Positions 7,829-59,621 are shown, numbered from the stretch's first letter. The stretch: 64,000 nucleotides of DNA from an uncultured Pseudomonadales bacterium (GCA_964348455.1 CAYGCQ010000001.1:58450-122449), one strand, 5' to 3'. Notes: generated from the letters alone by a model not told the origin. Translations and numbers: made by a program.

Positions 7829-9010
7829 ATGAAAAAACTTCCCATCGCAGTCATCGTCATCCCCACTTACAACGAAGCTGCTTCTATCGGGAAGATGATA
7901 GATCACCTCTTTACAGTTACTTTTCCAATCATCAAGAACTGGGATTGTAAAGTTTTAGTAGTTGACGACACATCTCCCGATGGCACCTACAAGGTAGTTC
8001 AAGAAAAGCAAAAGAAGTTCAAAAATTTATTTTTATCCCTTAGTGCCAAGAAGGCCGGTATTGGCGGCGCCTATGTCCGAGGATTCCGCTACGCCATGAA
8101 AGAGCTACATGCCGACGTGGTCATTGAGATGGATGGAGACTTCCAGCATCCTCCTCGACTAGTAAACAATTTACTGAAAGCCATTGACGACGGTTACGAC
8201 TACGTCATGGGTTCCAGAAAAATAAAAGGTGGCAGCAATCCGAAAGGTTGGGGGTTCAAGAGAGTTTTCTTTAGTGAAGTTGGCGGTATGGTCGCTCGCT
8301 TTGTATTATTCTTCCCCACCAAAAATTACTTCCGCATTACAGATCCTACCGGTGGTTTCAAGGCTTCACGAGTTAAAGGTTTTGTAGACACCATTGACAT
8401 GGATCATCTTTATTCCAGAAGTTTTGGGTACAAGTTGGAGTTTCTCTACAAAATGGTTCTGTTGGGAGCCAAGGTAAAAGAAATACCATTACAGTTCAAT
8501 GTTAGAAATGCCGGAGAATCCAAGATAGAGCCTCAGACAGCTAAAGAGATTTTCAAAACAGTTTTTCTGCTTCGGTGGAACGATTCAACTACTCAAAAAT
8601 TTATTAAATTTGGATGCATCGGACTTTTCGGTTTTGCCATTAACAAAATCGGCCTCGACGTCTTTGCTAAACTTCTGGGCAACGTAATCAGTGTAATAGG
8701 AGTTCGTAATACCGTCGCCAACGCCCTCGCCGCCGAGGTTTCTATTATCAGTAACTTTGTTTTTAACAATCTCTGGACCTTCAAGAATGAAAAACTTGTT
8801 TGGGGGTCCAAGTTAATCAAAAAGTTTACTACTTTCAATCTCAGTTCCGTAGTCTCCGGTATCATCATCCCTAGTTTGGTAATCGGTCTTGGCACTCAGA
8901 CTTTTGGTGATCAGTACCGCACCCTTTTCTTAGTCATTGCTGTCTTCCTCATTACTGTACCGCTAAACTGGTTCATCTACAACGTATTTATTTGGAAGAA
9001 GAATAAGTAA
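7829..9010 (+). CDS. GT2 polyprenyl-phosphate sugar synthase (DPM1-like) fused to C-terminal GtrA-like 4-TM domain
   Basis: AVIVIPTYNEAASI, VVDDTSPDGT and IEMDGDFQHPP are GT2 DxD-family motifs. The C-terminus FIKFGCIGLFGFAINKIGLD...NLWTF resembles GtrA-family domains. Start taken at MKKLPIAV. Confidence 0.75.
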   Translation: MKKLPIAVIVIPTYNEAASIGKMIDHLFTVTFPIIKNWDCKVLVVDDTSPDGTYKVVQEKQKKFKNLFLSLSAKKAGIGGAYVRGFRYAMKELHADVVIEMDGDFQHPPRLVNNLLKAIDDGYDYVMGSRKIKGGSNPKGWGFKRVFFSEVGGMVARFVLFFPTKNYFRITDPTGGFKASRVKGFVDTIDMDHLYSRSFGYKLEFLYKMVLLGAKVKEIPLQFNVRNAGESKIEPQTAKEIFKTVFLLRWNDSTTQKFIKFGCIGLFGFAINKIGLDVFAKLLGNVISVIGVRNTVANALAAEVSIISNFVFNNLWTFKNEKLVWGSKLIKKFTTFNLSSVVSGIIIPSLVIGLGTQTFGDQYRTLFLVIAVFLITVPLNWFIYNVFIWKKNK

Positions 9011-9016
9011 AAACCC

Positions 9017-9281
9017 GTCATTGCGAGTTTCGGTACCCGATCCCAGAGTCGCCTCTGGAGAGACCGTAGCAACCTCACACCTTTCACCACACCACCCACC
9101 ACACCACCCGTCATTGCGAGTTTCGGTACTACGAACCGAAGCAATCTCCGCTATTACACCACTCCACGAATGTCATCCTCGCGAAAGCGGGCCGATAGTA
9201 CCCGAATGGGTAGATCCACAAACACCACACAACACATCCTCAAAACACCCCAGTCATTCCCGACCTGATCGGGAATCTATA
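9017..9281 (+). repeat. intergenic array of 4 hairpin-repeat units with CA-rich spacers, ending in the left TIR of GIY-YIG element copy 2
   Basis: Units at 9017-9078 (GTCATTGCGAGTTTCGGT...long loop...AACCTCAC), 9110-9149 (GTCATTGCGAGTTTCGGTactacgaACCGAAGCAATCTCC), 9172-9219 (GTCATCCTCGCGAAAGCGGGccgatagtacccgaatgggtagatcca) and 9253-9281 (canonical 29-mer). Confidence 0.9.
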
Positions 9282-9682
9282 TAGATAAAGTACAATTTAA
9301 TTGTGAAGAGATATTATGTGTATATTCTCGCAAGTTATAAAAATGGTACGCTGTATATAGGTGTAACAGGAAATTTAGAAAATAGAATATCTATCCATAA
9401 AAACGATATTGTGAAGGGGTTTACAAAGAAATTTGCAGTACACAGTCTGGTTCATCTGGAGGAATTCGAGAATTCATTACAAGCTATAGCAAGAGAAAAA
9501 CAACTAAAGCATTGGAAGAGAGATTGGAAAATTGAACTCATTGAAAAATCAAATCCAGATTGGAATGATATATCTGATGAATTTCTCTAAAAAAAGTTGA
9601 ACCCGTTTTTATAGATTCCCGATCAGGTCGGGAATGACGATTGAAATATTCCACATATTTTTACTCCGTGATTCGCAATGAC
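9253..9682 (+). mobile_element. GIY-YIG micro-element copy 2, identical to 5916-6345
   Basis: Same 29-bp TIRs (9253-9281 and 9610-9638), same internal sequence and ORF, same gtgattcgcaatgac end (9668-9682). Flanking sequence diverges immediately outside. Confidence 0.7.
9303..9590 (+). CDS. GIY-YIG nuclease superfamily protein, identical second copy
   Basis: 95-aa translation identical to 5966-6253. Confidence 0.8.
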   Translation: MKRYYVYILASYKNGTLYIGVTGNLENRISIHKNDIVKGFTKKFAVHSLVHLEEFENSLQAIAREKQLKHWKRDWKIELIEKSNPDWNDISDEFL

Positions 9683-9691
9683 GCAAATTTT

Positions 9692-9723
9692 GAGTTTTAG
9701 AGTTTTTGAGTTTTAGAGTTTTT
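9692..9723. repeat. direct tandem repeat (gagttttagagttttt) x2 at the 3' end of the minus-strand gene
   Basis: Two adjacent 16-nt units. A related motif ttttagagttttagattttttgagttttt occurs at 61747-61779. Confidence 0.8.
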
Positions 9724-10838
9724 TACAAATATGGAGCCCAATCCGCTATTGGTGCAGTGTTGTTTAAAAGGAAATTCCACGTAAATAAGAAAATTGGGAC
9801 TATTAGCAAAGCTGCAATTACTTTAAACTCTTTTTTTTGAGCAAGTTTATCCCAGCCAATAAGTACAAATGGAGCTATCGGCAATATGTATCTACTGATA
9901 TCTCGGTGAGCTACAAAAAGAGTGGATAAGAAAAACAGTCCAGCAAAATAGTATTCAACATCCAGTTTTTTCTCTTTAAGCTTCATGACTCCGATTCCAA
10001 AAATCAACCATGTCCAGATAATATCTTCGAGCCAAAAATTTCCCACCCAAACTTGACCTTTGGGTGCAAACACACTAAATGGTGGCCAGAATAAATGCAT
10101 ATTATCTCCGCTGTGCAAATAAGCCCAGAAATCACCGGTTCGAATATTAAAGAACTGGAACAATCCAAAAATTGCAACCACTTGAATTAATAACGGCCAG
10201 TACTTCCATTGAATTTTCTCCTCTTTGACTGATTGAACTAACGCAAATATTCCATACGCAGCAAGTAGAATAATTGCCGGACTTTTGGTCAGTTGGGCTA
10301 ACGCACCAAATACACCTGCCCAAACATATCTTCCTTTTTTGAAGTAAAAAAGGCTGGCAATGATAAAAAGCATAAACCATGGCTCAGGTGAACCAATCCC
10401 TCTTAGTGCCAACCATCTTGCCGGAAGAATCATAAAAACTATTGTTAGCCAAAACGGGTTAACGCTCAGTTTAAACTCGCTAAGGTACTTGTAAAACATT
10501 AAGAAGCACAGAATGGTTCCGAGTAAAGTGGCAAGTAGCATCGCCGTCGGCCCTTTCAAGAAAGGATCAAACATCGATATAACTGCAGGGTAAAGTGGGA
10601 AGTGTGCTGCAAAATACTCCGCTGTTTCTGTCGTCGAGAATGCAGTCTTTATGTGTTCTCTGTCATACCATGTTTTTTCAACTATTAGGTAGTTTGGACC
10701 ATCATAATTCTGCCAAAGAATCTTTGTTCCTTCAGAAAAATCAAGATTCCACCCGGGAAGATTGCTTTTTAGGACAAAAGGTGCCCAAACAATCAAGGTA
10801 AATAAAATAGTAATTAACACTAAATAAGCTCGTTTCAT
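9723..10838 (-). CDS. polytopic membrane protein, GPI-mannosyltransferase-2 (PIG-V)-like GT-C family candidate
   Basis: About 9 predicted TM helices. The N-terminal loop WQNYDGPNYLIVEKTWYD...FPLYPAVI resembles the W-DG-WY...GY...FFPLYP signature of Mannosyl_trans2-type proteins. Paralogous to 55861-56994. Confidence 0.5.
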   Translation of the reverse strand: MKRAYLVLITILFTLIVWAPFVLKSNLPGWNLDFSEGTKILWQNYDGPNYLIVEKTWYDREHIKTAFSTTETAEYFAAHFPLYPAVISMFDPFLKGPTAMLLATLLGTILCFLMFYKYLSEFKLSVNPFWLTIVFMILPARWLALRGIGSPEPWFMLFIIASLFYFKKGRYVWAGVFGALAQLTKSPAIILLAAYGIFALVQSVKEEKIQWKYWPLLIQVVAIFGLFQFFNIRTGDFWAYLHSGDNMHLFWPPFSVFAPKGQVWVGNFWLEDIIWTWLIFGIGVMKLKEKKLDVEYYFAGLFFLSTLFVAHRDISRYILPIAPFVLIGWDKLAQKKEFKVIAALLIVPIFLFTWNFLLNNTAPIADWAPYL

Positions 10839-10857: not shown

Positions 10858-11574
10858 GTGAGTATGTCGAGACAAATAGATAAACTATCCGTATTCTTAC
10901 CGGCTTACAACGAGGAGGCAAATCTTGATAAAACAGTCAGAAATGTTGTAGAAAACCTCAAAAAAAATGTTTCCACCTGGGAGCTAATCATTGTTAACGA
11001 TGGCTCCAAAGACAAGACCGGTGAAATTGCCGATCGATGGAGCAAGAAAGACAAGAGGGTTACCGCCATTCACCACAATCCAAATCGAGGTTACGGGGCC
11101 GCCTTAAAGAGTGGCTTATATGCTTGTAAATATCCCTGGATCTCCTTTATCGACTCCGACGGCCAGTTCGATTTCAGAGAGATAAATCGTTTTATGGATA
11201 CTCAAGAAAAAACCGGTGCCGACATGGTCATAGGTTACTATCTTGGTAGAAAAGTTTCCTTCACTAGAAAATTAAATACTTTTATGTGGCAAGTAATTGT
11301 CCGAATCTTATTCGGTTTGAATGTCAGAGACATCGACTGTGGCTTCAAATTAATTTCCAAGAGAGTTGTGGACAAAATCGAACCGTTACAAAGTGAGAGG
11401 GGAGCCTTTATTAGCAGTGAATTCTTAATTAAAGCCAAAAAAGCCAGGTTCAAAATAGTGGAGATTGGTGTTCAGCACTTTCCCAGAAAACAGGGTGAGG
11501 GCACGGGGGCCAATCTAGACGTCATCATTCAGAGTTTTGTTGATCTCTTCAAGCTATGGTACAAGCTGAAGTAA
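10858..11574 (+). CDS. GT2 glycosyltransferase, DPM1-like polyprenyl-phosphate sugar synthase
   Basis: LSVFLPAYNEEANL, IIVNDGSKDKT, FIDSDGQFD, HHNPNRGYGAA and GFKLISKRV motifs. Confidence 0.75.
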   Translation: MSMSRQIDKLSVFLPAYNEEANLDKTVRNVVENLKKNVSTWELIIVNDGSKDKTGEIADRWSKKDKRVTAIHHNPNRGYGAALKSGLYACKYPWISFIDSDGQFDFREINRFMDTQEKTGADMVIGYYLGRKVSFTRKLNTFMWQVIVRILFGLNVRDIDCGFKLISKRVVDKIEPLQSERGAFISSEFLIKAKKARFKIVEIGVQHFPRKQGEGTGANLDVIIQSFVDLFKLWYKLK

Positions 11575-11829: not shown

Positions 11830-13326
11830 ATGAACTCAATAATAAATTTTATAAAAAAGAACAAATCCGAGTCTATATTGCTTGGAGCAGTCCTCCTTCT
11901 TGCACTTGTACTTCGCGTCTATCGTATCGAAGATTTTATGACCTTTCTTGGTGACGAGGGTCGTGATGTCCGCATTGTTCGCGATTTAATTACTCAAGGC
12001 AACTTAGTCTTTATCGGTCCGCAAACCAGTATTGGAAACATGTATCTAGGACCTCTTTATTACTACATGATGGCCCCTGCACTTCTCCTTTCCGGTCTCA
12101 ACCCCGTTGGACCAGCCATTATGGTTGCTCTACTGGGAACACTGACAATCTGGCTGACTTGGTTCGTCGGTAGAAACTGGTTTGGCAAACAGGCTGCATT
12201 TATCGCTGCGCTGCTTTTTGCAGTCTCTCCGGTCGCCATTATTTACTCCCGCTCTTCATGGAATCCTAACCCGATGCCTTTTTTCGCTCTTCTGTGTATC
12301 TGGGGAATCTATGAAGTCTGGCAGAATAAAAAATATATTTGGCTTCCCTATACCAGCATCTCTTTTGCCTTTGCTCTTCAGATGCACTATCTGGGGTTAC
12401 TTTTGATTCCTACCCTAGGCCTGTTCTGGCTTTTTACTCTCATATCCATTAATAAAGCCAAAGACATAAGGTCTAGAAGGATTTTTCTACGATATTCTCT
12501 TTTTGGGTTTTTGATTTTTTTATTACTGATGTCTCCACTTTTGCTGTTCGACACAAAACACAACTGGATGAACTTTAATGCTTTCAAGTCATTTTTCTCA
12601 GATCGTCAGACAACTGTAAATCTAAACCCCGCCAGGTCAGATAGATTTCTTCCTGTCATGCTTATGACCATTTCAGACATGGTTTTAGCTCGCCAAGAGT
12701 ACTTTGCTCCCATAACCTTAGCACTCACTCTTCTGCTGTCAGGCTGGGTTTATTTTAAGTCCAAGTGGCAGACTCCTCTAAAGGTATTATTTGTTTGGCT
12801 CGGTCTAGCTATCCTTGGTCTTAGTGTCTATAAGCAACATGTCTACATTCACTATCTCGGATTTATCTACCCAGCCATCTACCTTCTCATTGGGGCGATT
12901 TTAGGATTCATGTTACAACGGAAAGTAGTCTTAAAAATTATTTCAGCTTCTCTGGTACTCTTTCTCTTTTTCTACAGTCTGGTTTACAGTCCGGTAAGAG
13001 AAACTCCAAATCGTCAACTTTGGCGCACAGAAGCGGCCGTAGATCTCATTATTAAGGAGTCGGGTGGCCAGCCGTTCAACTTTGGCTTACTTGCAAAACA
13101 AAACTATGATGAGTCCTATCGTTATTTTTTGGAGAACAAAAAAGCCAATTCTTTTAGAGCTGAAGATAAGGTAACGAATCAGATGTTTGTCATCTGTGAA
13201 GACGGTGATGCTTGTAGCCCGGAAGGAAGTCCTGCGTATCAAATAGCCAAGTTTGGACAAGCTCATGTAGTGGGCACATGGAATGTTGACTATCTGAAAA
13301 TTTATCGTTTAGCACATTTCAAATGA
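11830..13326 (+). CDS. GT-C fold membrane glycosyltransferase, ArnT/PMT-like (subfamily with GDEGRD loop motif)
   Basis: More than 10 TM helices. The first periplasmic loop RIEDFMTFLGDEGRDVRIVRD carries the DE motif. Paralogous to 27145-28878 and the N-terminal half of 37686-38273. Confidence 0.65.
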   Translation: MNSIINFIKKNKSESILLGAVLLLALVLRVYRIEDFMTFLGDEGRDVRIVRDLITQGNLVFIGPQTSIGNMYLGPLYYYMMAPALLLSGLNPVGPAIMVALLGTLTIWLTWFVGRNWFGKQAAFIAALLFAVSPVAIIYSRSSWNPNPMPFFALLCIWGIYEVWQNKKYIWLPYTSISFAFALQMHYLGLLLIPTLGLFWLFTLISINKAKDIRSRRIFLRYSLFGFLIFLLLMSPLLLFDTKHNWMNFNAFKSFFSDRQTTVNLNPARSDRFLPVMLMTISDMVLARQEYFAPITLALTLLLSGWVYFKSKWQTPLKVLFVWLGLAILGLSVYKQHVYIHYLGFIYPAIYLLIGAILGFMLQRKVVLKIISASLVLFLFFYSLVYSPVRETPNRQLWRTEAAVDLIIKESGGQPFNFGLLAKQNYDESYRYFLENKKANSFRAEDKVTNQMFVICEDGDACSPEGSPAYQIAKFGQAHVVGTWNVDYLKIYRLAHFK

Positions 13327-13875: not shown

Positions 13876-13901
13876 GTCATTCCGGGCTTGACCCGGAATC
13901 C
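13876..13901 (+). repeat. hairpin repeat, type B (GTCATTCCGGGCTTGACCCGGAATCC), 10 nt upstream of ATG 13912
   Basis: Stem CCGGG/CCCGG, loop cttga. Intergenic between orn and a GT2 gene. Confidence 0.9.
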
Positions 13902-13911
13902 AGAAACTCAA

Positions 13912-14673
13912 ATGTCTCCAAAACTATCAATAGTCCTCAGTAACTATAACGAGCTTGCAAACCTAGAAAGGGGAGTGCTTGAGGAAATGTATTCTTATCT
14001 TAAGAAAGTAAAATTCACCTGGGAAGTTATCATTAACGATGATGGTTCTTCCGATGGCGGTGACAAGATTATAGGAAATTTTGTAAAGAAGCACTCCGGG
14101 TTCAAAATGATAAAGGGAAGTCATGGAGGTAAAGCTGCCGGTATTTGGAATGGTATCCAGGCCGCCAACGGTGAAGTGGTTCTCTATACCGACATGGATC
14201 AATCGACTCCATTAAAAGAATGCGAGAAACTCCTTCCTTGGTTTGATAAAGGCTACGACGTTGTCTTTGGTTCTAGAGGAAAGATGCGCAACAACTTTTC
14301 TCCCATTCGCCAGGTATCCTCATGGTCCTTCAGAACTTTCAGGGGATTTCTACTTCTTCATGATGTTGTCGATACTCAATGCGGCTTCAAGGCTCTCAGA
14401 ACAGACGTTGCCAAAAAAATATTTCCCATGCTTTCAGTAATCAAAAGCAACAAGACTGTAAGCAAAGGTTGGACGGTTTCTGCTTTCGATGTTGAGCTAT
14501 TATTTCTCGCCGAGAAACTTGGATACAAACTGAAAGAAGTTGATGTTATTTGGAAGAACGAAGATACTTCCACCAGCAAACAAAAGAGTTTTATTGGTGA
14601 GTCGGTGGACATGTTACAGCAAATAATTCAAGTCAAAATTAATGACCTAAAAGGTTTATATGATCAAAAATAA
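13912..14673 (+). CDS. GT2 glycosyltransferase
   Basis: LSIVLSNYNELANL, VIINDDGSSDG, YTDMDQSTP and QCGFKAL motifs. ATG start chosen. The ORF track extends upstream to a TTG inside the repeat. Confidence 0.75.
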   Translation: MSPKLSIVLSNYNELANLERGVLEEMYSYLKKVKFTWEVIINDDGSSDGGDKIIGNFVKKHSGFKMIKGSHGGKAAGIWNGIQAANGEVVLYTDMDQSTPLKECEKLLPWFDKGYDVVFGSRGKMRNNFSPIRQVSSWSFRTFRGFLLLHDVVDTQCGFKALRTDVAKKIFPMLSVIKSNKTVSKGWTVSAFDVELLFLAEKLGYKLKEVDVIWKNEDTSTSKQKSFIGESVDMLQQIIQVKINDLKGLYDQK

Positions 14674-16162
14674 ATTAGCTTGGTTGGTGGGACTTGCTCT
14701 AGCATCCGTCGCTTTGTTTTTATTTTTTCGACTTTATTCACTAAATAAAATTCCTGTTTTTGTTGATGAGGCGATCTATGTTCGCTGGTCTCAAGTCATG
14801 AGGACAGAACCCACCCTACGCTTTCTTCCGCTTTCAGATGGCAAGCAGCCACTATTTATGTGGATGACCATGCCTTCACTCAAATTTATTTCAGATCCTC
14901 TAGTTGCGGGGAGAATAGTCTCTGTTTTTGCCGGACTTGGTTCTATGATTGGTATTGGAGTTCTAACCTTTTTACTTTTTTCTGACCCCTTCATCGCTCT
15001 ATTTTCTTCACTTCTTTATGCCATTGTTCCTTTTTTCATGTTTTTCGATCGCATGGCCCTCGCCGATAGTCTTCTGGCCATGTTCGGAGTTTGGGCTCTT
15101 GTTTTTGCGATTAAATATGCCAAAACACTAACCACCGAGTACGCCATCTATCTTGGTTTTGCCATTGGCGGAGGTTTATTAACGAAGTCACCTGCCATGA
15201 TTTTTTATATTTGGTCTTTACTTGCACTCGTCTTTTTTCTTGACCTAAAAAATATTCATGCAAAAAATATTGGGAAATTACTCTGGGGATTATTCTTGGT
15301 CCTTGTTATTTCTCAGGTAATGTACGGCATACTCAGATTAGGTGTTGGTTTCCAGATGATTGGAGCCAGAAACCAGGACTACGTCTACTCCATTAGAGAA
15401 GTCCTGAGTCATCCACTTTCTCCTCTGATCGGAAATCTAAAGACCACCGGAAACTGGCTATTCCTTCTTTTGTCCCCGACAGTCTTAATTCTAGGAGTAC
15501 TGGGATACTTAAACACTAAGACTAGAAGGCAGTTTTTCTTTTTACTACTTATTTCATTTCTGCCACTTATTTTTCAAGCTTCAATCGCCAAAGTATATAC
15601 CAGTCGCTACATTATCTATGCCACACTACCACTTCTACCACTAGCCGGACTTGGACTTCACTGGCTATTTTGCCGAAAAGGGATTCTCATTAAGTCCTCC
15701 ATTGCATTGTTTTTGTCTGTCCCTCTACTACTTACCACAGTCTATTTGCTAAATCCCGGCATCGCTCCCATGTCATACGATATGAGTAGTGGCTACTTGC
15801 AAGAATGGACTGCCGGTACCGGGCAGAAAGAAGTTGCCGATTATCTTCTAAAAGAAGAAGCTAAAGGAAGCAAAATAGTGGTTTTTACCGAAGGTACTTT
15901 TGGCACACTTCCCGATGGTCTTCAGATTTATACCGAGGGTCACAAAGATATTACCATTGTCGGATCCACACCAAATATTTACGAAATTCCCGAGGGATTA
16001 CTGAACACAGATCCGGAGAATCAACGTTACTACGTTTTAAATTCTTCTAGAAATCATCTTCCGGCTTCGGAAATGGAAAAGCTGGAACTTATCAAGGAGT
16101 ATCCCAAGATGACGAGATTAGATGGTTCTCACGAATCTCTTTTGTTCTTCCGCCTCAAATAA
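14660..16162 (+). CDS. GT-C fold membrane glycosyltransferase, ArnT/PMT-like
   Basis: About 12 TM helices. First-loop motif IPVFVDEAIYVRWSQVM (DE). C-terminal soluble domain. Confidence 0.6.
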   Translation: MIKNKLAWLVGLALASVALFLFFRLYSLNKIPVFVDEAIYVRWSQVMRTEPTLRFLPLSDGKQPLFMWMTMPSLKFISDPLVAGRIVSVFAGLGSMIGIGVLTFLLFSDPFIALFSSLLYAIVPFFMFFDRMALADSLLAMFGVWALVFAIKYAKTLTTEYAIYLGFAIGGGLLTKSPAMIFYIWSLLALVFFLDLKNIHAKNIGKLLWGLFLVLVISQVMYGILRLGVGFQMIGARNQDYVYSIREVLSHPLSPLIGNLKTTGNWLFLLLSPTVLILGVLGYLNTKTRRQFFFLLLISFLPLIFQASIAKVYTSRYIIYATLPLLPLAGLGLHWLFCRKGILIKSSIALFLSVPLLLTTVYLLNPGIAPMSYDMSSGYLQEWTAGTGQKEVADYLLKEEAKGSKIVVFTEGTFGTLPDGLQIYTEGHKDITIVGSTPNIYEIPEGLLNTDPENQRYYVLNSSRNHLPASEMEKLELIKEYPKMTRLDGSHESLLFFRLK

Positions 16163-16190: not shown

Positions 16191-18008
16191 ATGCGTTACT
16201 TCTCTCAGATTATTCCCTCAATAGCCAAATTTATTTCACGATTTAGAGTAGAGATTATTTTGTTGCTTTTAATTGTTCCTGCAATCAGCGACATATTTAA
16301 GCCTGGTTTTATGCCTATGCACGATGATCTTCAAGTTCTTCGCTTGGTAGAAGTTCATAAATGTGTATTGGACGGCCAGATTCCTTGCCGTTGGGTGCCG
16401 GATGCTGGTTATGGTTATGGCTACCCTCTTATGGAGTTCTATCCACCTATGCCTTACTACCCGATGGAGCTCATGGTACTACTCGGTTCCGACTTCTTCT
16501 TACCGGTCAAGGTCATGTTTGCCTTAGCCTTCTTACTTAGTGGTCTGGGTATGTATCTATTAGCCAAGGAGTTCTTTGGTAAATGGGGAGGTGTTATAGC
16601 CGCCGTTCTGTATGTCTATTCTCCGTATCACTCTGTAGATGTATATGTTCGAGGCGCCATGAACGAAGCCTGGGGGATGGTCTGGTTCCCCTTTGTCCTT
16701 CTCTACATTTATAGATTAATACATAGTCATTCCCGACCTGATCGGGAATCTATAAAAATAAAATCCCAAAATACAATTTCTCGCGACTTTATCTACTTAA
16801 GCATCGCCCTCGCTCTCCAGCTAACCTCACACAACGTTATGACTTTAGTTTTTGCCCCCACGGCTATTATCTGGGCATTTTTCTGGATGTGGAAAGCAGA
16901 CAAATTTGAAAGGTTCAAAGAGCTCTTTTTTGCCGGGTTACTTGCCTTAGGACTTTCAGCTTTCTTCTTTATTCCCGTAGTCTTGGAGCAGAAATTTGTT
17001 CACGTAGACACCATGACCATCGGTTATTTCAATTACTTAGCTCACTTTGCTGATTTAAATCAACTATTCTGGACCCGTTTCTGGGGTTATGGCGGCTCTA
17101 CTTGGGGTCCGGAAGATGGGATGTCTTTCTCGATTGGTCACATTCAGTGGATCGGTGCCATACTCGCTAGCACAGTAGCTATTATGAGACTTTATCGACT
17201 CAAGTTTTACAAAAATGTATCTGTCATTGCGAGTCTCGTAGCCGAGCCGAAGCAATCTAAAAGTACAAAATCATCGGAAATAAATATGATGATTCTTCTG
17301 ATGATTTCTTTCGGCTTATTTTACGCTTTTCTCACTCATAGTCGATCAAACTTTATCTGGGAAAGGCTGTCAGTTCTTCAGTTTGCTCAGTTTCCTTGGC
17401 GACTCGTGGCATTGATTGTCTTTTACTTCTCTTTTGCTGCCGGATATGTGGGTACTATTACTATTCCTAAGTTTTTTAAGGCTATTATTTTTCCCATATT
17501 AATCATTGGCATTATTTTATTTAACATTCCCTTCTTCCGGTTTGAGCGTCATGTAAGGGTAACGATTCAAGAAAAAATGTCTGGACTTCAATGGGAGAAT
17601 CAGGTTACGGGTGGTATCTTCGACTATCTTCCTAGGACGGCTACCAGACCACCCGGCGCCCCTGCCTTCACTATTCCTCAATACATCGAAGGCAATGGTG
17701 GAATCTTGAACTATCGATCAGGGTCAAACTGGATTGCCTTTGATGCTTTCGTTTCTACTTCCTCAGCCAAAGTCATGCTTCCCATGTTTACATTCCAAGG
17801 TTTAAAAACAAAAGTCGATTCCCAGAGAGTGCTAACTGAAATGGATCCGGATCTAGGAAGAATAATCGTCAACCTGGATCAAGGACTTCATCATGTAGAA
17901 GCCAAAATTGGCTACACGAAAGTAAGGCTCTTGTCAGACTTTTTAACTTTTATTTCTCTTGCCATATTAATAAAGCTAATCTACCGTGATCGAAAACACA
18001 CCACCTGA
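16191..18008 (+). CDS. large polytopic membrane protein (possible GT-C glycosyltransferase) carrying two in-frame hairpin repeats
   Basis: 605 aa with at least 12 TM helices. Repeats at 16726-16754 (read as HSRPDRESI) and 17223-17259 (SVIASLVAEPKQS) keep the frame open. Confidence 0.5.
   Translation: MRYFSQIIPSIAKFISRFRVEIILLLLIVPAISDIFKPGFMPMHDDLQVLRLVEVHKCVLDGQIPCRWVPDAGYGYGYPLMEFYPPMPYYPMELMVLLGSDFFLPVKVMFALAFLLSGLGMYLLAKEFFGKWGGVIAAVLYVYSPYHSVDVYVRGAMNEAWGMVWFPFVLLYIYRLIHSHSRPDRESIKIKSQNTISRDFIYLSIALALQLTSHNVMTLVFAPTAIIWAFFWMWKADKFERFKELFFAGLLALGLSAFFFIPVVLEQKFVHVDTMTIGYFNYLAHFADLNQLFWTRFWGYGGSTWGPEDGMSFSIGHIQWIGAILASTVAIMRLYRLKFYKNVSVIASLVAEPKQSKSTKSSEINMMILLMISFGLFYAFLTHSRSNFIWERLSVLQFAQFPWRLVALIVFYFSFAAGYVGTITIPKFFKAIIFPILIIGIILFNIPFFRFERHVRVTIQEKMSGLQWENQVTGGIFDYLPRTATRPPGAPAFTIPQYIEGNGGILNYRSGSNWIAFDAFVSTSSAKVMLPMFTFQGLKTKVDSQRVLTEMDPDLGRIIVNLDQGLHHVEAKIGYTKVRLLSDFLTFISLAILIKLIYRDRKHTT
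16726..16754 (+). repeat. canonical 29-mer hairpin repeat inside CDS, frame b (HSRPDRESI)
   Basis: gtcattcccgacctgatcgggaatctata, exact. Confidence 0.9.
17223..17259 (+). repeat. hairpin repeat type D (GTCATTGCGAG...CCGAAGCAATCTA) inside CDS, in-frame
   Basis: gtcattgcgagtctcgtagccgagccgaagcaatcta. Confidence 0.85.
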
Positions 18009-32639: not shown

Positions 32640-32676
32640 TGTATTCTTATTATAGCTAGCGAGTATAATTTTCGAT

Positions 32677-42062: not shown

Positions 42063-42083
42063 CGCATATAATTACTAAGCAAC

Positions 42084-42920
42084 ATGAAAAAACTAATATT
42101 TTTTGTCTCGGCAGTTTTGATGTTGGCTTTCTGGCCTCTCTCTTTCCTATTTGCCAATCAGGACTCCTGGGTACCCTTTTTCGTAGCTCTCACAATACTT
42201 CTGGTAGATTGGCTTCTTTATCTAAATAAGTTTAAATACCACTACTTCCTATATCTCCTCTTCCCTCTCATCCATCCTGCGTTGCTCCTCTTCCCAATTA
42301 TTTCACTTATTTTTATTGTTATTTCGACCGAGGGTAAGCCCAGGTGGAGAAATCTCACACTAGCAATATTCACCTCGCTCCTAATTATTGTCTCTTTTTT
42401 TTCCTACAAAACCTTCTATGCTTACTCCATCTTCACTCCAGATCCACTAGCTTTTGATACCCTAAACAAAAAGATTTCTCTAATCCCAAATCGCAATCTA
42501 GCCAAAGTTTTCATGAACAAAACTACAATTTTTCAGGATAAATTTAAATCCAATATTTTTATCTCTTTAGACCCAAACAACTACTTTTTTGGACTTCACC
42601 CACAAGAGTTGGGAAACAACCAGAACTTAACAAAATTTCCATATCTAGCCATTTTTCCCTTTCTGATAGGTTTGTACTATTTATTGGACAGTAAGTCCAA
42701 GCATTGGATAATATCTATCTTTGTTGCCATAGCATCTTCCATCGCCTTTATAAACAATCAGGATCGATTCGACATCCTACTTTACTTACCCATAGTCCTC
42801 ATTTGTCTTAATGGGCTGAAAAAGATCTTCGATTCATCATCTTTTAATTTCTCCATTTTTTCTGCCTTTTTCATCCCCATTTCAATTATCGAACTAGCTA
42901 GGCTAATTATATTTAGATAA
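42084..42920 (+). CDS. hypothetical polytopic membrane protein
   Basis: 278 aa with about 8 TM helices, interleaved between PMT paralogs. Confidence 0.45.
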   Translation: MKKLIFFVSAVLMLAFWPLSFLFANQDSWVPFFVALTILLVDWLLYLNKFKYHYFLYLLFPLIHPALLLFPIISLIFIVISTEGKPRWRNLTLAIFTSLLIIVSFFSYKTFYAYSIFTPDPLAFDTLNKKISLIPNRNLAKVFMNKTTIFQDKFKSNIFISLDPNNYFFGLHPQELGNNQNLTKFPYLAIFPFLIGLYYLLDSKSKHWIISIFVAIASSIAFINNQDRFDILLYLPIVLICLNGLKKIFDSSSFNFSIFSAFFIPISIIELARLIIFR

Positions 42921-49966: not shown

Positions 49967-51813
49967 AATCAACTGTCATTCCGGGCTTGACCCGGAATCT
50001 ATACAAATTTATTCCTATTATTCTTGTCTTGCTATTAGCTGCCTTTCTAAGATTAATCTCTCTGGACAAATTTCCGGCTGGTTTAAACGCAGATGAAGCC
50101 GCGATTGGGTACAACGCTTGGTCTTTGATCCAGACAGGTAAAGATGAACATTCTATGTCTTGGCCATTAGTATTTAGATCTTTCGATGACTACAAGCCTC
50201 CAGTTTATTTTTATCTTGTCCTCCCATTCGTAAAATTTTTAGGACTGAATGTCTGGTCTGTCCGTCTTCCCTCAGCACTAGACGGTATTGCCTCTGTCTA
50301 CCTCCTTTACTTAGTTGTCATTCTTTTATTCAAAAAAACAAATTCCACTAACAATCATGTCATCCTCGCGAAGGCGGGGATCCATCCGGATCACAATTCT
50401 TCTGATTTAGAATGTGACACAAAGACATATCGATTTGCCCTCCTCTCCGCCCTCCTTCTCGCTATTTCTCCTTGGCATCTTCAGTTCTCTCGGGGAGGAT
50501 GGGAGGTAAACGCAGCACTCTTTTTTATCCTTTTGGGGATTTGGTCTTTCTTCAAGGGCTTGGAAAAGCCAAAATATTTTTATCTCTTTGTCATTTCTAT
50601 GGCCGTCAGCCTCTACACATATCACTCCGCCCGCATCATCTCTCCCTTACTTGCCCTCACTCTCGTCATCCTCTTCTGGAAACAACTCTTCCCAATATCA
50701 TTACCCAAAGTCCATCGTGTCATTCCCGACCTGATCGGGAATCTATATAAATCTACCGCTTCAAAAACCTGTCTCATCGCCTGTCTTCTCGGCCTCCTCC
50801 TCTCCCTCCCTCTCGCCGGCCAGCTTCTATCCAAAGAAGGTCAATCGCGTTTTTCAGGAGTTTCTGTTTTTTCAGATACCGGTCCACTCTGGCAAGCACT
50901 GGAACAGCGTAGAGCTCACACCCCTGAAACTATTTTTATCAAATCTATTCACAACCAATATCTTTCCTACGGACTAAGATTTGTCAAAAATTATTTATCT
51001 CACTTTTCACCACGCTTTCTATTTGTTACCGGAGACGAGATTGCTCGTAGTAAAGTGCCTGGTATGGGGCAGACTTATTTGTTCTTGATACCATTTTATT
51101 TTCTAGGACTTTACTCCTTACTGAAACTAGATTCGAAGGGTAAAAAACTTATTTTTATTTGGTTCTTGATAGCGCCATTGGCTGCTGCTCTAACTTTTCA
51201 GTCACCTCATGCCCTACGCTCTCAGAACATGGTAGTGCCTCTATCGGTAATCTCTGCGCTTGGACTTTCAGTATTTATAAACCTGCTTCTAAGAGTAAAT
51301 AAGAAATGGCTCACTATTACGATTTCAACTTTACTATTTCTTTCTGGCACCTACTCCGTCGCTCGGTATCTACATCTATACTATGTTCATTACCCCAAAG
51401 AGCTCCCCTTTGCTTGGCAATTCGGTTTTGATCAAGTCGCTGCTTATACCAACGACAACTATGATAATTATGACCGTATCTTAATTTCCGATCGTTATGA
51501 TCAGCCCTACATACTTATGGCCTTTTTCCTAAAATATCCACCTGAAGTGCTCCAAAAAGAACTTGTCATGACCCCTCGCGATAAGTTTGGTTTCTCCACG
51601 GTCAGAAAGTTCGGAAAGTTTGAATTCCGATCAATTGACTATGGTCAAGATAAGTTGCTTCCAAATACCCTTATAATGGCCGCAGACGAGGCCGTCGATG
51701 ATGAAGCCGTAATCCATATTATCAACGACCCCGCCGGAATCCCAATGTACAAATTCATCTCGACAGAACCTGTTTTAAAAATTGATCTACCTATCACTGC
51801 CAAAGAAAAATAA
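49963..51813 (+). CDS. ArnT/PMT-family membrane glycosyltransferase (tandem paralog 6) carrying three in-frame repeats
   Basis: NADEAAIGYNAWSLIQTGKDEHSMSWPLVFRSFDDYKPP...SVRLPSALDGIA. Repeats at 49975 (N-terminus, MKSTVIPGLTRNLYKF), 50359 (VILAKAGIHP) and 50719 (VIPDLIGNLYKS). Confidence 0.7.
   Translation: MKSTVIPGLTRNLYKFIPIILVLLLAAFLRLISLDKFPAGLNADEAAIGYNAWSLIQTGKDEHSMSWPLVFRSFDDYKPPVYFYLVLPFVKFLGLNVWSVRLPSALDGIASVYLLYLVVILLFKKTNSTNNHVILAKAGIHPDHNSSDLECDTKTYRFALLSALLLAISPWHLQFSRGGWEVNAALFFILLGIWSFFKGLEKPKYFYLFVISMAVSLYTYHSARIISPLLALTLVILFWKQLFPISLPKVHRVIPDLIGNLYKSTASKTCLIACLLGLLLSLPLAGQLLSKEGQSRFSGVSVFSDTGPLWQALEQRRAHTPETIFIKSIHNQYLSYGLRFVKNYLSHFSPRFLFVTGDEIARSKVPGMGQTYLFLIPFYFLGLYSLLKLDSKGKKLIFIWFLIAPLAAALTFQSPHALRSQNMVVPLSVISALGLSVFINLLLRVNKKWLTITISTLLFLSGTYSVARYLHLYYVHYPKELPFAWQFGFDQVAAYTNDNYDNYDRILISDRYDQPYILMAFFLKYPPEVLQKELVMTPRDKFGFSTVRKFGKFEFRSIDYGQDKLLPNTLIMAADEAVDDEAVIHIINDPAGIPMYKFISTEPVLKIDLPITAKEK
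49975..50006 (+). repeat. type B repeat 12 nt after the annotated ATG, in-frame
   Basis: gtcattccgggcttgacccggaatctatacaaa. Confidence 0.9.
50359..50389 (+). repeat. type E repeat GTCATCCTCGCGAAGGCGGGGATCCATCCGG, in-frame
   Basis: T-G wobble position conserved. Confidence 0.9.
50719..50750 (+). repeat. canonical repeat, in-frame (VIPDLIGNLYKS)
   Basis: Exact 29-mer plus TATAAA. Confidence 0.9.
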
Positions 51814-55860: not shown

Positions 55861-56994
55861 ATGTCTCTAAAAGAAATATTTAAGCTGATTTTAGGTTGGA
55901 GACTAATCTTGATTCTTATTGCCATCCCGGCAATGTTCCTTCTAGTACCCCGCCCTCGTTTCACCAACGTCTCCGAAAAGCCTGCCTTTGGAAACATTTT
56001 TTCCATGTGGTCCAACTTCGATGGATCTCGCTATCTAGATATAGCCCAAAATGGATATGGTTATCAGCGCAAGACAAACGCAGACTATGCTTTCTATCCC
56101 GTTTACCCCTGGTTGGTAAGAAGTTTTAGTTTCCTTGGTGGCTACTTATCTTCCGGTCTGATTATTTCTCATGCTTCATTTGTCTTGGCTTTGTATTTTC
56201 TCTACAAGCTAATTTTGCTGGACTTCAAGTCCAAGATTGCCAAGTCCACTATCTACCTTCTACTATTATTTCCTACAGCTTTCTTTTTTGGCTCGGTTTA
56301 TACCGAATCTGTATTTTTGTTGCTAGTTATTCTCAGTTTTTACTTTGCCAGGAAAAATAATTTTTTTCTCGCTTGTGCTATGGCGGGTATTGCCTCTGCC
56401 ACCAGAGTCACCGGAATTTTTCTCTGGCCCGCCCTCATCTATGAATTCTGGTTGCTTTACGGTAAAGATAAAAAATTTGAAATTAACCCCTCTTCTATCT
56501 GGCTTAGTCTCCCCCCCATAGGTCTAATTTCATTTCTAAGATATCAATTTCTTCAGACAGGAGATCTATTTTTCTTCATTAAGTACCAGACTGATTTAGC
56601 CGGGATGGCGGGGAACAAACTGATTCTTCTCCATCAAGTGTTTTTTAGATATTCCAGAATGGTATTGTTTATGGATCACTTAGACCCCTTATTCTTTACA
56701 GTTTTGCTGGAACTACTAAGTGCCGCCTTAATAGTTTTGGTGCTAATATTTTCGCTTAAGAAGATAAGGTTTTCTTACTGGATTTTTACCTTTTTGTCTT
56801 TCCTGCTTCCCACTTTTATTGGATCATTTTCCAGCATGCCTAGGTTTACACTAGTTCTCTTTCCTATCTTTATCTATCTGGCTCTATGGCTAGACAGGAA
56901 TCACCCATACTTCAAATATTTTTATTACCTTATTTGTGTGGTTTTCACAATCTTTTCTGTAATCTTCTTCACCCGTGGCTACTTTGTTGCCTAG
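55861..56994 (+). CDS. polytopic membrane protein, PIG-V/Mannosyl_trans2-like GT-C candidate
   Basis: WSNFDGSRYLDIAQNGYGY...YAFYPVYPWLV. Paralogous to 9723-10838(-). Confidence 0.5.
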   Translation: MSLKEIFKLILGWRLILILIAIPAMFLLVPRPRFTNVSEKPAFGNIFSMWSNFDGSRYLDIAQNGYGYQRKTNADYAFYPVYPWLVRSFSFLGGYLSSGLIISHASFVLALYFLYKLILLDFKSKIAKSTIYLLLLFPTAFFFGSVYTESVFLLLVILSFYFARKNNFFLACAMAGIASATRVTGIFLWPALIYEFWLLYGKDKKFEINPSSIWLSLPPIGLISFLRYQFLQTGDLFFFIKYQTDLAGMAGNKLILLHQVFFRYSRMVLFMDHLDPLFFTVLLELLSAALIVLVLIFSLKKIRFSYWIFTFLSFLLPTFIGSFSSMPRFTLVLFPIFIYLALWLDRNHPYFKYFYYLICVVFTIFSVIFFTRGYFVA

Positions 56995-58428
56995 CTACCA
57001 AATCCTTTTAAAGAGATAAAAGTGTCCCTGGTGGAATTCAAGGCTATATTTCTCATCCACTAGTAGTTTTTCAATTACGGATCCCTCGAAATCTTTTGGC
57101 TTATAGTCCCCGATAATACGGTTTTGATCTACCATGGCAACGTAGTCAGCTCCAAATACCATTTGTGGTAAATTAAACGCATTTTCTCTATGTGTAATGT
57201 GCCCTCTTACCTCAGATGATGCGGCTACAGAAGCTTCTTTTGGAATTGCCCTAAGCGCCTTCTCAAAAGCAATCTCATCTTGGCCAACATCATACATTGG
57301 TCTCCAGTATGATGGGGTAGTCGGAAGTGGGCTGTAGTGATAATTTGTTCTAATCGCAACAGCCAGTAGCCATACCCCGATTAACCAGCCAATCCACTTA
57401 TATTTTTTGAATATAATATCTATCAGCTTCCAAGCCAAGATTGTCGACATCACCAGTCCGACCACTATAATACTGTCATAGTGAAATGTGTTGCTTCTCA
57501 TCTGGCTTTGAGTGCTCATCATGTTAATAAAGAAGTCCGGCACCGCCAAGAAGAACCATGGAAAGCCGAGAAGTGGAATGAATCCAAAAGGTTTGAGAAG
57601 TGTAAGGTAATATGGCCCTGAGTCTATGTTGGTAAATTTCCAAAGTATCTTACTAATATCAAAGCCCACACCGGAATCATTAGAGTATTTGGAAATATCA
57701 AACCAGTTCCATACCCAAAAAGCTCCACTTACAGCAGCGTGAGGAATTAGATAGAAAACGGTTACTATAAACCATACCGCTCCGGCTACCATCAGGATCG
57801 TCCCCCTCAGCCATTGTCTATAGAAAATAAATATATAGACTCCTAGCATAACTACGGCCAGAGATGCGCTTTCCTTGGTCAGTAGTGTCAGAAATGAAAA
57901 TAAGAACATCCAGTTCCATTTTTTCTTATATGCACTATAGAAAGCCGCCGGGAGAAAAGCCATAGCCATGGTAACTCCATGAAAGTCATAAATATTAGAC
58001 CACTGTACACCTGGATTGAGAAGATAGACTGAAGCAATCACAAGACCCTTTACCTTATTCTTTAATACGTCACGAGCAAGAAGGTATATTGGAATCGCAG
58101 CCAGTCCGATAACTAAGCTTTGCAGAAATAATAAAGTATCAATACGATCATAGATAAGGTAAAAAGGCGAAAGCAAGGCCAGAATTAGATCAGCATGATA
58201 ACTAAATCTTGAGGTGGTCCCAGTCATTCCCGAGACAGCAAAAAAACGACCATTAGCAGTGTTCCATACAGTCTGATCCATATTTGCGAGATCAAAGCTG
58301 GAAGCAAAGGCATAGTGTCTTCGAATAGACAGGTAAGACAAGGTGATTACATAAACAGCAACTAGAATCGAAAGTGTTATTCCGGCCCAGTTTTTTTTGG
58401 CAAATTTTAGCAATTTATTTATTTTCAA
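56995..58428 (-). CDS. DUF2079-like polytopic membrane protein
   Basis: SFDLANMDQTVWNTANGRFF N-terminal loop plus about 12 TM helices. Commonly found in clusters with GT2 polyprenyl-phosphate glycosyltransferases. Confidence 0.5.
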   Translation of the reverse strand: MKINKLLKFAKKNWAGITLSILVAVYVITLSYLSIRRHYAFASSFDLANMDQTVWNTANGRFFAVSGMTGTTSRFSYHADLILALLSPFYLIYDRIDTLLFLQSLVIGLAAIPIYLLARDVLKNKVKGLVIASVYLLNPGVQWSNIYDFHGVTMAMAFLPAAFYSAYKKKWNWMFLFSFLTLLTKESASLAVVMLGVYIFIFYRQWLRGTILMVAGAVWFIVTVFYLIPHAAVSGAFWVWNWFDISKYSNDSGVGFDISKILWKFTNIDSGPYYLTLLKPFGFIPLLGFPWFFLAVPDFFINMMSTQSQMRSNTFHYDSIIVVGLVMSTILAWKLIDIIFKKYKWIGWLIGVWLLAVAIRTNYHYSPLPTTPSYWRPMYDVGQDEIAFEKALRAIPKEASVAASSEVRGHITHRENAFNLPQMVFGADYVAMVDQNRIIGDYKPKDFEGSVIEKLLVDEKYSLEFHQGHFYLFKRIW

Positions 58429-59353
58429 TGATTTTTTTTATCATCCAAGATTTTTCTTGAGTATTATTTTTAATTACCAGGTCGGCAAGTATTCCGGAAA
58501 CCAGTAGCTGTATTCCCGCTAGAAGCCCAACTAGCCCAACTAGTGGCCATATCTTGTCTGATAAAGTATATCCGAAAAAGATTTTCATCCATGCCATGGT
58601 AAAAAGTAAAACAGAAGAAAATAAAATCAGAAACAATCCCGCGCCCCCAAAGAGATGTAGTGGTCTAGAATTATATTTTCTGGTAAACCAGATCAGAAGC
58701 ATATCTAAGAATCCCTTGACCATTCTACTCGGACCATACTTACTGACTCCAGCTATACGAGGGCGATGATTTACTATTATCTCTGTGATTTTAAAACCTC
58801 TCCATCGTAGTATAGCCGGTATCATCCGATGCATTTCTCCACTCAAGTCCAAGTCCTCAAAGCAATCTCTTTTGTAAACTCTCAAAGTACATCCCGCATC
58901 GTGAACTGTGTCATCTACCAGTATGGATCTTAAATTCCTGGCCACGCTAGATATAAATCTTTTATCAAAACTATCCTTCCTCTGATATCTCCAGCCACAA
59001 ACCACTTCATACCCCTCCTCCATTTTTTGAATTAGTTTGAGAAAGTCGGCTGGATCATTTTGCCCATCTCCATCAAGAGTTATTATTTTCTCTCCCACGG
59101 AAGCTTTTATACCGGTATCTAAGGCAGTTGACTGACCAAAATTTCTTCTAAGTGAAATTATTTTGACACTTTCGATCTTTGCAAGCACCTTTTCGGTATC
59201 ATCTGTCGAACCGTCGTTCACTACGATAATTTCATATTCACCGGCAACTTTTTTCATCGACACCTTGATCTCTTTAATCAAAGTTTCTACGTTGCTCTCT
59301 TCATTAAAGACGGGAATCACAACTGAATATCTGGGACTATTTTGCTTTTGCAT
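58415..59353 (-). CDS. GT2 polyprenyl-phosphate glycosyltransferase (ArnC/DPM1-like) with C-terminal TM helices
   Basis: YSVVIPVFNEESNV, IIVVNDGSTDDT, RRNFGQSTALDTG, ITLDGDGQNDP and GCTLRVYKR motifs. Confidence 0.8.
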   Translation of the reverse strand: MQKQNSPRYSVVIPVFNEESNVETLIKEIKVSMKKVAGEYEIIVVNDGSTDDTEKVLAKIESVKIISLRRNFGQSTALDTGIKASVGEKIITLDGDGQNDPADFLKLIQKMEEGYEVVCGWRYQRKDSFDKRFISSVARNLRSILVDDTVHDAGCTLRVYKRDCFEDLDLSGEMHRMIPAILRWRGFKITEIIVNHRPRIAGVSKYGPSRMVKGFLDMLLIWFTRKYNSRPLHLFGGAGLFLILFSSVLLFTMAWMKIFFGYTLSDKIWPLVGLVGLLAGIQLLVSGILADLVIKNNTQEKSWMIKKIIENK

Positions 59354-59621
59354 TTGAAATAAGGTTAATGTTGCGCATATAGATGGCTATTTGTAAAAAA
59401 ATACTGATTAAAAAAACCACGTCTCTTCTCTGTAATACGTAAAAAATTAACATAATAGAAGCAATTATTCTCAATACCCAAAAACCAGTTGGGATGACGC
59501 TTCTTTTTTCTTTCTCCGAAACAGCCCACTGAAAAACAAAGCTTAAGAAAAATATACCTTGAGCAGCCAACCCCCAAACAGTCCACAAGTCTATTTTAAA
59601 TCCGGCAAATTCCATGCTCAA
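59337..59621 (-). CDS. small membrane protein with lipid-A-biosynthesis N-terminal (LAB_N)-like domain
   Basis: WTVWGLAAQGIFFLSFVFQWAVSEKEKRSVIPTGFW...DVVFLI matches the LAB_N pattern. Sits immediately upstream of the ArnC-like GT2. Confidence 0.55.
   Translation of the reverse strand: MSMEFAGFKIDLWTVWGLAAQGIFFLSFVFQWAVSEKEKRSVIPTGFWVLRIIASIMLIFYVLQRRDVVFLISIFLQIAIYMRNINLISNAKAK

Follow-up and report, generated by a model that had tools for sequence, protein, structure and literature searches.

How does a bacterium with a tiny genome make and deliver the activated sugars used by a large set of surface glycosyltransferases? The question is raised by a 64,000-nucleotide stretch of DNA, here called the window, deposited under an uncultured Pseudomonadales bacterium (GCA_964348455.1, CAYGCQ010000001.1:58450-122449). 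Its GC content is about 40%, and nearly all of its genes are related to glycosylation. This 64-kb window encodes 12 family 2 glycosyltransferases (GT2s), 2 GT4s and 2 MOP-type transporters, and about 16 of its polytopic proteins match GT-C families (PMT_2, PMT, YfhO, GT87/PIG-U, DUF2079 and the AZOBR_p60025 family). Several extra polytopic open reading frames (ORFs) are unannotated and have the same layout, in which a first transmembrane (TM) helix, TM1, is followed by a long loop and TM2. Altogether there are about 16-20 GT-C-type membrane glycosyltransferases.

A preliminary description of the window proposed that three GT2s (7829-9010, 10858-11574 and 58415-59353) load sugars onto polyprenyl phosphate for the GT-C enzymes, the last of them together with a LAB_N and a DUF2079 gene, and it assigned two Wzx-like flippases to the same pathway. 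Each of these ORFs is present at its coordinates and belongs to the family named. We hold with good confidence that the window is a Microgenomates-type surface-glycosylation island with at least three, probably five, polyprenyl-phosphate GT2s, and that LAB_N, GT2 58415-59353 and DUF2079 form a self-contained three-component module of the Gtr/Gac/Arn type. In the scheme that we favor, a nucleotide sugar would be the source of the single sugar that each GT2 loads onto polyprenyl phosphate at the cytoplasmic face; the lipid-linked sugar would then cross the membrane, where GT-C enzymes at the outer face would take it as donor. Within the module, the GT2 would make the polyprenyl-phosphate sugar and DUF2079 would act as the GT-C transferase, while LAB_N would be the small third component, either a GacJ-like subunit that helps the GT2 or a mover of the lipid-linked sugar across the membrane. 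What is observed here are family and fold assignments and gene linkage, whereas what the enzymes catalyze, which sugar and acceptor they use and what LAB_N does are matters of inference.

Polyprenyl-phosphate-type GT2 enzymes

The first of the three GT2s, 7829-9010 (plus strand), fuses a catalytic domain (PF00535 Glycos_transf_2, 2.9e-23) to a four-TM domain of the GtrA/DPMS type (PF04138 GtrA_DPMS_TM, 3.8e-11). Its best match in the PDB is Pyrococcus furiosus DPMS (5mlz, 6.3e-42). The alignment (residues 9-355 against 27-345) spans the catalytic and TM domains, and the DGDFQHPP and DPTGGF motifs line up, making the protein a candidate archaeal-type (P. furiosus-like) polyprenyl-phosphate hexose synthase. 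The second, 10858-11574 (plus strand; Glycos_transf_2, 3e-32), is a 238-residue protein with a DSDGQ motif and no predicted TM helix, an architecture like that of GacI and PpgS. GT-C genes lie on both of its flanks, and its best PDB match is ArnC (9bhc, 4.8e-14; residues 6-216, the catalytic domain), with GtrB at 5e-12. The third, 58415-59353 (minus strand; Glycos_transf_2, 5.5e-32), has 312 residues, the DxDxQ motif and two C-terminal TM helices. Its alignment with its best PDB match, again ArnC (9hwj, 4.7e-34; residues 8-294 against 9-296), extends from the catalytic domain through the juxtamembrane stretch and across the two TM helices; GtrB matches at 4e-26. The NCBIfam models that it matches, ArnC (1.7e-40) and PgfS (5.3e-37), both score far under their equivalog cutoffs.

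Among the 12 GT2s of the window, the metal-site motif DxDxQ is restricted to these three, as DGDFQ, DSDGQ and DGDGQ, respectively, and its counterpart in ArnC and DPMS is DADLQ. Each of the three has a GT-A catalytic domain with DxD(xQ) and aligns over the full domain with solved members of the class, bearing out the DPM1/ArnC motif set with which they had been credited. Membrane association is seen in 58415-59353 through the two TM helices aligned to those of ArnC and in 7829-9010 through the GtrA_DPMS_TM domain. The DPM1-type C-terminal TM region expected of all three is thus present in these two, but 10858-11574 has no TM helix, and a hydrophobic-moment scan of it for an amphipathic C-terminal helix was uninformative. 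Its membrane association is supported only indirectly, because TM-less forms are known in GacI and PpgS and account for 33 of the 43 LAB_N-linked GT2s described below. Taken together, the sequences identify the three as putative polyprenyl-phosphate sugar synthases, with the predicted activity nucleoside diphosphate (NDP)-sugar + polyprenyl-P -> polyprenyl-P-sugar. Assigning GT2s to this class is routine annotation. We also considered ArnC orthologue identity for the GT2s of the window and rejected it: the score against NF007986 is 139 bits compared to a cutoff of 529, and the window contains no Arn genes.

Two further GT2s resemble this class. A probable fourth member, 13888-14673 (plus strand), matches GtrB best in the PDB (6.6e-10), followed by DPMS (6.8e-8), has DMDQS and DTQCGFK motifs, and overlaps the start of the PMT_2 GT-C gene 14660-16162. 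The weakest case is a possible fifth, 61784-62629 (plus strand), which has a DTQTGLK motif and matches NCBIfam PpgS (8e-13; residues 29-231 against 4-198 of 226) and GtrB (1.6e-4). For a test in which the class was defined by genomic context alone, we built two profiles from GT2s adjoining LAB_N in unrelated metagenomic loci. Taking the higher of the two scores, 58415-59353 reached 404 bits, 10858-11574 reached 159 (range 140-159), 13888-14673 reached 116 (105-116), 7829-9010 reached 96 and 61784-62629 reached 75 (64-75). All five (64-404 bits) aligned across the entire catalytic domain. Six of the other seven GT2s scored below 34 bits and aligned in the nucleotide-binding (N-terminal) half only, and 24290-25219 had no match. 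We conclude from these profiles that the window encodes at least three polyprenyl-phosphate-type GT2s and probably five in all. The three originally named as donor suppliers are right, but the count was probably too low, as 13888-14673 and 61784-62629 fall in the same class by profile.

The LAB_N, GT2 and DUF2079 module

On the minus strand, GT2 58415-59353 lies between a LAB_N gene (59337-59621; PF07578, 3.2e-21), encoding a small three-TM protein, and a DUF2079 gene (56995-58428; DUF2079, 2.1e-53), encoding a polytopic membrane protein. The gene-caller start of LAB_N is 59615, which gives a protein of 92 residues. The three genes overlap by 17 and 14 nucleotides, which suggests that 56995-59621 is an operon.

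The DUF2079 profile had no match by sequence in the PDB, and we used fold comparison instead. The predicted structure (predicted local distance difference test, pLDDT, 92.5) scored 18.4 against ALG12, 16.5 against ArnT, 15.9 against Pmt2, 15.8 against ALG9, 15.3 against PglB and 14.3 against AftB. GT-C enzymes carry a catalytic acidic residue just after TM1, in the first extracytoplasmic loop, and an Asp directly after TM1 is invariant in the DUF2079 family alignment. The protein thus shows both marks of the GT-C fold, the conserved N-terminal TM module and an acidic residue placed in the first extracytoplasmic loop. Because of the fold comparison and the invariant Asp, the model marks DUF2079 as very probably a GT-C transferase. 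A literature search on 'DUF2079' returned no mention of the family.

We surveyed the conservation of the module from both of its uncharacterised families. The DUF2079-anchored sample comprised 79 species-representative genome loci, 60 of which had enough flank for adjacency to be evaluated. The LAB_N-anchored sample comprised 6 look-ups and 80 metagenomic loci (453 kb), of which 42 were evaluable, having 1 kb or more of flank in each direction. A polyprenyl-phosphate-type GT2 adjoins LAB_N on the same strand in 51/80 loci (32/42 evaluable), and only 2 such GT2s lie elsewhere in the 453 kb. The LAB_N gene is mostly directly downstream of the GT2, and overlap is frequent. When we examined the 43 complete LAB_N-adjacent GT2s, 33 were TM-less proteins of about 236-264 residues, like 10858-11574, and 9-10 had two TM helices, like 58415-59353. 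The polytopic neighbors of LAB_N are mainly GT-C proteins (PMT_2 in 18 of 32; GT87, YfhO and DUF2142 were also found).

Full LAB_N/GT2/DUF2079 triads occur, in three gene orders, in the window and in L004, L026, L033, L083, L085, L087 and L096/L097 (our labels for sampled loci), so that the three-gene synteny on which the preliminary description staked its reading does exist elsewhere. In all, triads are present in at least 8 further locus groups beyond the window, and L099 holds a truncated LAB_N-DUF2079 pair. The L085 triad is surrounded by housekeeping genes. Other GT-C proteins can take the place of DUF2079, as in the YfhO-GT2-LAB_N triads of L120, L122 and L127, whose YfhO proteins are close homologues of the window YfhO at 30387, and the PMT_2-GT2-LAB_N triad of L111. 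We conclude that LAB_N and the GT2 make up the robust unit, whose GT-C partner can be exchanged, and that the gene linkage of three-component (Gtr/Gac-type) systems, a GT2 with a GT-C and a small membrane protein, is present.

DUF2079 has other partners as well. PF03706 is present in 39/79 DUF2079 loci, fused to the DUF2079 N-terminus in 36 and adjacent in 3, and is never found together with LAB_N in the 79. In Levybacteria-like genomes the fusion joins DUF2079 to an N-terminal MprF-type flippase-like TM domain, PF03706 (L044:7035-9422, L068:7062-10382 and L056:8004-10412). A few DUF2079 proteins have, in addition, an alpha/beta-hydrolase domain at the C-terminus (Peptidase_S9/BD-FAE-like), and L083 has a free-standing alpha/beta-hydrolase two genes upstream of DUF2079. 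Among the 32 polytopic neighbors of LAB_N, one matches PF04018 (VCA0040-like/undecaprenyl phosphate translocase-like, 5.5e-102), which places a carrier-lipid recycling protein beside a LAB_N gene.

The AlphaFold2 model of LAB_N is a three-helix bundle (pLDDT 92.7), and residues Q21, Q31, W32, E36, D67, R83 and N84 are invariant. In Pfam, Lab-N shares the MtN3-like clan with the SWEET and PQ-loop families (PMC4499210). At E<10, the LAB_N profile matched four PDB sequences, all of them SemiSWEETs, in register over nearly the full length and at sub-significant E-values of 0.04-0.9. A Foldseek search of the PDB with the model placed SemiSWEETs at ranks 2, 6, 8, 11 and 15; no match was significant (E>1), since a bundle of three helices has too little structure for such a search to tell folds apart. 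Tandem duplication is seen in six LAB_N proteins, of which the one in L138 has a weak MtN3_slv match. These two-domain forms, of ~205-217 residues (L138:953-1576, L140, L142, L164, L169 and L171; also L092:4001-4576, P0171), recall the SemiSWEET-to-SWEET duplication. LAB_N is also the N-terminus of some LpxB proteins (NCBIfam PRK01021), where it is fused to a peripheral lipid-directed glycosyltransferase. In the literature, PF07578 was named solely in a clan listing, while searches with other LAB_N terms gave noise and 'disaccharide synthase N-terminal domain' gave nothing. We considered Bordetella LgmD (lgmABCD locus) as a LAB_N protein and dropped it, since its family could not be checked; lgmD is described only as not essential.

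Alternative readings and the role of LAB_N

Several observations weigh against this reading of the GT2s and their module. From the side of DUF2079, a polyprenyl-phosphate-type GT2 is adjacent in 17/79 loci (13/60 evaluable, ~22%) and LAB_N is present in only 3/79 (L004, L026 and L033), which makes the triad one arrangement among several. Because the sampled loci share phylogenetic relationships, their counts are not independent events. Within the window, 10858-11574 has neither a TM helix nor an adjoining small partner gene, no priming phosphoglycosyl transferase was seen, and no GT2 reaches an NCBIfam equivalog cutoff, so that no sugar specificity is assigned. Moreover, 12 GT2s and 2 GT4s make chance adjacency easy, and there are partial NCBIfam matches to PgaC, TuaG and similar families. 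The three GT2s could then be ordinary processive or elongating glycosyltransferases that act on an oligosaccharide or polymer linked to undecaprenyl diphosphate (Und-PP), with the proximity of GT-C genes incidental. However, the PgaC/TuaG-type matches are confined to the N-terminal nucleotide-binding half, whereas the matches to polyprenyl-phosphate glycosyltransferases cover the catalytic domain in its entirety as well as the TM regions. Adjacency of the GT2 to LAB_N and DUF2079 also persists away from glycosylation islands, among housekeeping genes (L085; L002, L003, L006). We therefore consider ordinary elongating enzymes very improbable and retain the reading of polyprenyl-phosphate sugar synthases that serve GT-C transferases.

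Given such a synthase, LAB_N could be an accessory subunit like GacJ or Rv3632, which would bind the GT2, raise its affinity for polyprenyl phosphate and anchor TM-less forms, with no transport role. The gene arrangement points this way, as 33/43 complete LAB_N-adjacent GT2s are TM-less and LAB_N usually sits just downstream, often overlapping. The same arrangement is seen in gacI-gacJ and ppgS-Rv3632, where the three-TM partner lowers the Km for undecaprenyl phosphate (Und-P) from 18.7 to 1.1 μM and raises Vmax (10.1101/180810), and the LAB_N-LpxB fusion likewise joins LAB_N to a peripheral lipid-directed glycosyltransferase. On the other hand, LAB_N also stands beside two-TM GT2s (in the window and in 9-10/43), so anchoring alone is insufficient; LAB_N and GacJ (DUF2304) are different families, and LAB_N sits in a transporter clan. 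We give the accessory subunit a little less than an even chance. The clan membership (PMC4499210) instead favors a part in handling the polyprenyl-phosphate sugar, as a flippase, a scramblase or a 'utilisation factor'. In this role LAB_N would work as a SemiSWEET/PQ-loop-like dimer, comparable to GtrA or ArnE/F and perhaps also to eukaryotic MPDU1. Among PQ-loop proteins there are precedents, as CLPTM1L scrambles glycolipids and the use of Dol-P-Man and Dol-P-Glc depends on MPDU1 (PMC9169118, PMC3281891). At E<10 the LAB_N profile finds nothing but SemiSWEETs in the PDB, and these also rank high in the Foldseek list; there are also the six tandem duplications, one with its weak MtN3_slv match. 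In the DUF2079 loci, LAB_N (3/79) and PF03706 (39/79, mostly fused) are mutually exclusive. In the 80 LAB_N loci, PF03706 of the DUF2079-fused kind went undetected, one polytopic neighbor of LAB_N matches Pfam PF03706 directly, and a MOP flippase of the ORF 59653 type occurs in 0/80. This transport role nevertheless seems to us possible but doubtful, as the similarity to SemiSWEETs is sub-significant throughout (E 0.04-0.9; Foldseek E>1), the exclusion of LAB_N and PF03706 tracks clade boundaries and may reflect phylogeny, and the close pairing with TM-less GT2s suits the accessory-subunit model at least equally. The two roles are compatible and not mutually exclusive.

A broader proposal, which we advance tentatively and rate as unlikely, is that LAB_N is a widespread, unrecognised third component of such systems. 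As 'half' PQ-loop/SemiSWEET units, LAB_N proteins would dimerise alongside the GT2 and pass the lipid-linked monosaccharide on to the GT-C, by handover or by flipping, as a bacterial counterpart of eukaryotic MPDU1; elsewhere, PF03706 fused to DUF2079 would do likewise. The membrane crossing of polyprenyl-phosphate monosaccharides is a long-standing question for which the roles of GtrA, ArnE/F and MPDU1 are largely inferred, and to our knowledge the mechanism of MPDU1 itself is unresolved. A bacterial protein of the MPDU1/SWEET clan with ~90 residues, encoded in a three-gene operon, would offer a simple system for that question. LAB_N takes its misleading name from lipid A biosynthesis; in many environmental bacteria the family is closely tied to synthases of lipid-linked sugars and to GT-C enzymes.

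Host, neighboring genes and known systems

The contig is part of a metagenome assembly in ENA. All homologues of the window DUF2079 protein come from Patescibacteria of the Microgenomates group (Levy-, Davies-, Woese- and Shapirobacteria), and the host is a Microgenomates-type (Patescibacteria/Candidate Phyla Radiation, CPR) bacterium, monoderm-like. Patescibacteria are thought to have no outer membrane and a Gram-positive-like envelope (PMC6744442). CPR bacteria thus probably have no outer membrane and, by inference, no lipid A. A framing in terms of lipid A or a periplasm is therefore unsuited to the host; on this point the preliminary description, with its periplasm-facing enzymes and its likeness to ArnC-type modification cassettes, chose the wrong frame, and no ArnC orthologue is present either. 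For a CPR bacterium with a tiny genome, the GT2 calls help explain how an unusually large surface glycosyltransferase set is fed. Many records among the DUF2079 loci L002-L081 are titled 'uncultured Gammaproteobacteria bacterium' (metagenome-assembled genomes from binchicken/SRP co-assemblies), though their DUF2079 genes are clearly Microgenomates-type. These titles clash with the Patescibacteria titles of close relatives and look mislabelled, so we did not trust them. A tRNA and Rfam search of the entire window gave no match.

Both proposed flippases belong to the MOP family. The first, 17986-19464 (plus strand), is a Wzx-like MOP flippase by Polysacc_synt_3 (5.8e-52) and the NCBIfam MOP flippase model (1.1e-35). 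The second, 59653-60927 (plus strand), is a divergent MOP/PST-family transporter, transcribed divergently from the module and assigned by transitive family evidence: it has no Pfam match itself, and BLASTP against 17986-19464 was not significant. However, it has 3,826 homologues, 48/55 of those sampled match Polysacc_synt (PF01943), the family profile matches the solved MOP transporters 6hfb and 3vvn at ~1e-9 to 1e-10 (3.8e-10), and the family hidden Markov model also matches 17986-19464 at 1.9e-6. By these profiles, the label 'Wzx-like' is acceptable for the putative transporter. Placing both flippases in one pathway with the module fared less well, and we rejected a conserved linkage: a gene of the ORF 59653 type occurs in 2/79 DUF2079 loci (L035 and L039) and 0/80 LAB_N loci. 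The two MOP proteins may instead serve an Und-PP-oligosaccharide branch presumably built by the seven ordinary GT2s and the two GT4s. GacK, a Wzx-like protein, has been proposed to move GlcNAc-P-Und (10.1101/180810), and on this precedent it is possible that the MOP proteins flip monosaccharide carriers, with no support from synteny.

The rest of the window begins with rmlB (partial), rmlC and rmlD and is dominated by GT-C genes. Divergent from GT2 10858-11574 is a GT-C-like membrane protein (9723-10838, minus strand) that matches the NCBIfam AZOBR_p60025 glycopolymer formation family (2.2e-10) and has the layout TM1, long loop, TM2; downstream of the GT2 is a PMT_2 (ArnT-like) GT-C gene (11830-13326, plus strand; PF13231, 2.4e-12). 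Two PMT_2-type GT-C genes follow GT2 13888-14673 on the plus strand, at 14660-16162 (PF13231, 3.8e-11) and 16191-18008 (1.3e-4). Farther along are a PMT_2 gene (28923-30380, plus), a YfhO gene (30387-32693, minus) and a YfhO-like gene (32677-35007, plus). A plus-strand GT-C run at 38315-51813 opens with a GT87/PIG-U-like gene (38315-39580) and includes PMT_2-like GT-C genes starting at 42921, 44621, 46287, 48068 and 49963 as well as unannotated polytopic ORFs. Convergent with the module is a PMT_2-like GT-C gene (55861-56994, plus; PF13231, 1e-5).

Other elements lie between these genes. At 36731-38273 (minus strand), two successive ORFs 76 nucleotides apart, one of 195 residues with a weak PMT_2 N-terminal match and one of 292 residues with a weak TatC-like match, are maybe halves of a disrupted GT-C gene. 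The ORF at 19457-22972 (plus strand) encodes 1171 residues with ~12 predicted TM helices and no Pfam or NCBIfam match; the first 8 nucleotides of the ORF also belong to the 3' end of the Wzx-like gene. Directly upstream of the DPMS-like GT2 7829-9010 is a gene (7500-7823, plus strand) for a Cys-rich protein of 107 residues with a CDGSH iron-sulfur zinc-finger motif. A small element is present in two copies, at 5640-6345 and 9010-9682, the latter directly after the DPMS-like GT2. Each copy contains a 95-residue GIY-YIG ORF (5966-6253 and 9303-9590), and the two are 100% identical over ~430 nucleotides. The element is flanked by the hairpin GTCATTCCCGACCTGATCGGGAATC and its inverse, and ahead of it lies a stretch rich in GC (50-56%), made up of related palindromic 'GTCATTGCGAGTTTCGG...' units. 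It looks like a mobile or REP-like (repetitive extragenic palindromic) element and had no Rfam match.

The LAB_N/GT2/DUF2079 operon is a variant of the known three-component scheme, because uncharacterised families fill two of its three positions. In GtrA/GtrB/Gtr(type) O-antigen glucosylation, the small protein is GtrA (four TM helices, PF04138), whereas here it is LAB_N (three TM helices, MtN3-like clan); the GT-C is the uncharacterised DUF2079, and the host is a monoderm-like CPR bacterium without O-antigen. With GacI/GacJ/GacK/GacL of Streptococcus pyogenes and PpgS/Rv3632 of M. tuberculosis, the locus shares a synthase GT2 with an adjoining gene for a three-TM partner, a GT-C for which the lipid-linked sugar is the donor, and a nearby Wzx-like gene, and all four Gac-type gene classes lie inside 56995-60927. 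However, GacJ is a DUF2304 protein and not LAB_N, GacI is TM-less whereas 58415-59353 has two TM helices, and the Wzx-like neighbor in the window is not conserved with the module. The ArnC/ArnT/ArnE-F pathway of lipid A aminoarabinose modification also differs, as the window lacks ArnA, ArnB and ArnD and its GT2s are not ArnC orthologues (139 compared to 529 bits). The type III DPMS of Pyrococcus furiosus (5mlz) shares catalytic and GtrA-like TM domains and the metal-binding DxDxQ with 7829-9010, which is bacterial. Finally, LAB_N belongs to the same Pfam clan as the MPDU1/PQ-loop/SemiSWEET proteins, as a three-helix unit with occasional tandem duplication, a likeness at the clan level only. 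Genetically, LAB_N is tied to enzymes for the synthesis and use of polyprenyl-phosphate sugars, and it is at this step that MPDU1 is required.

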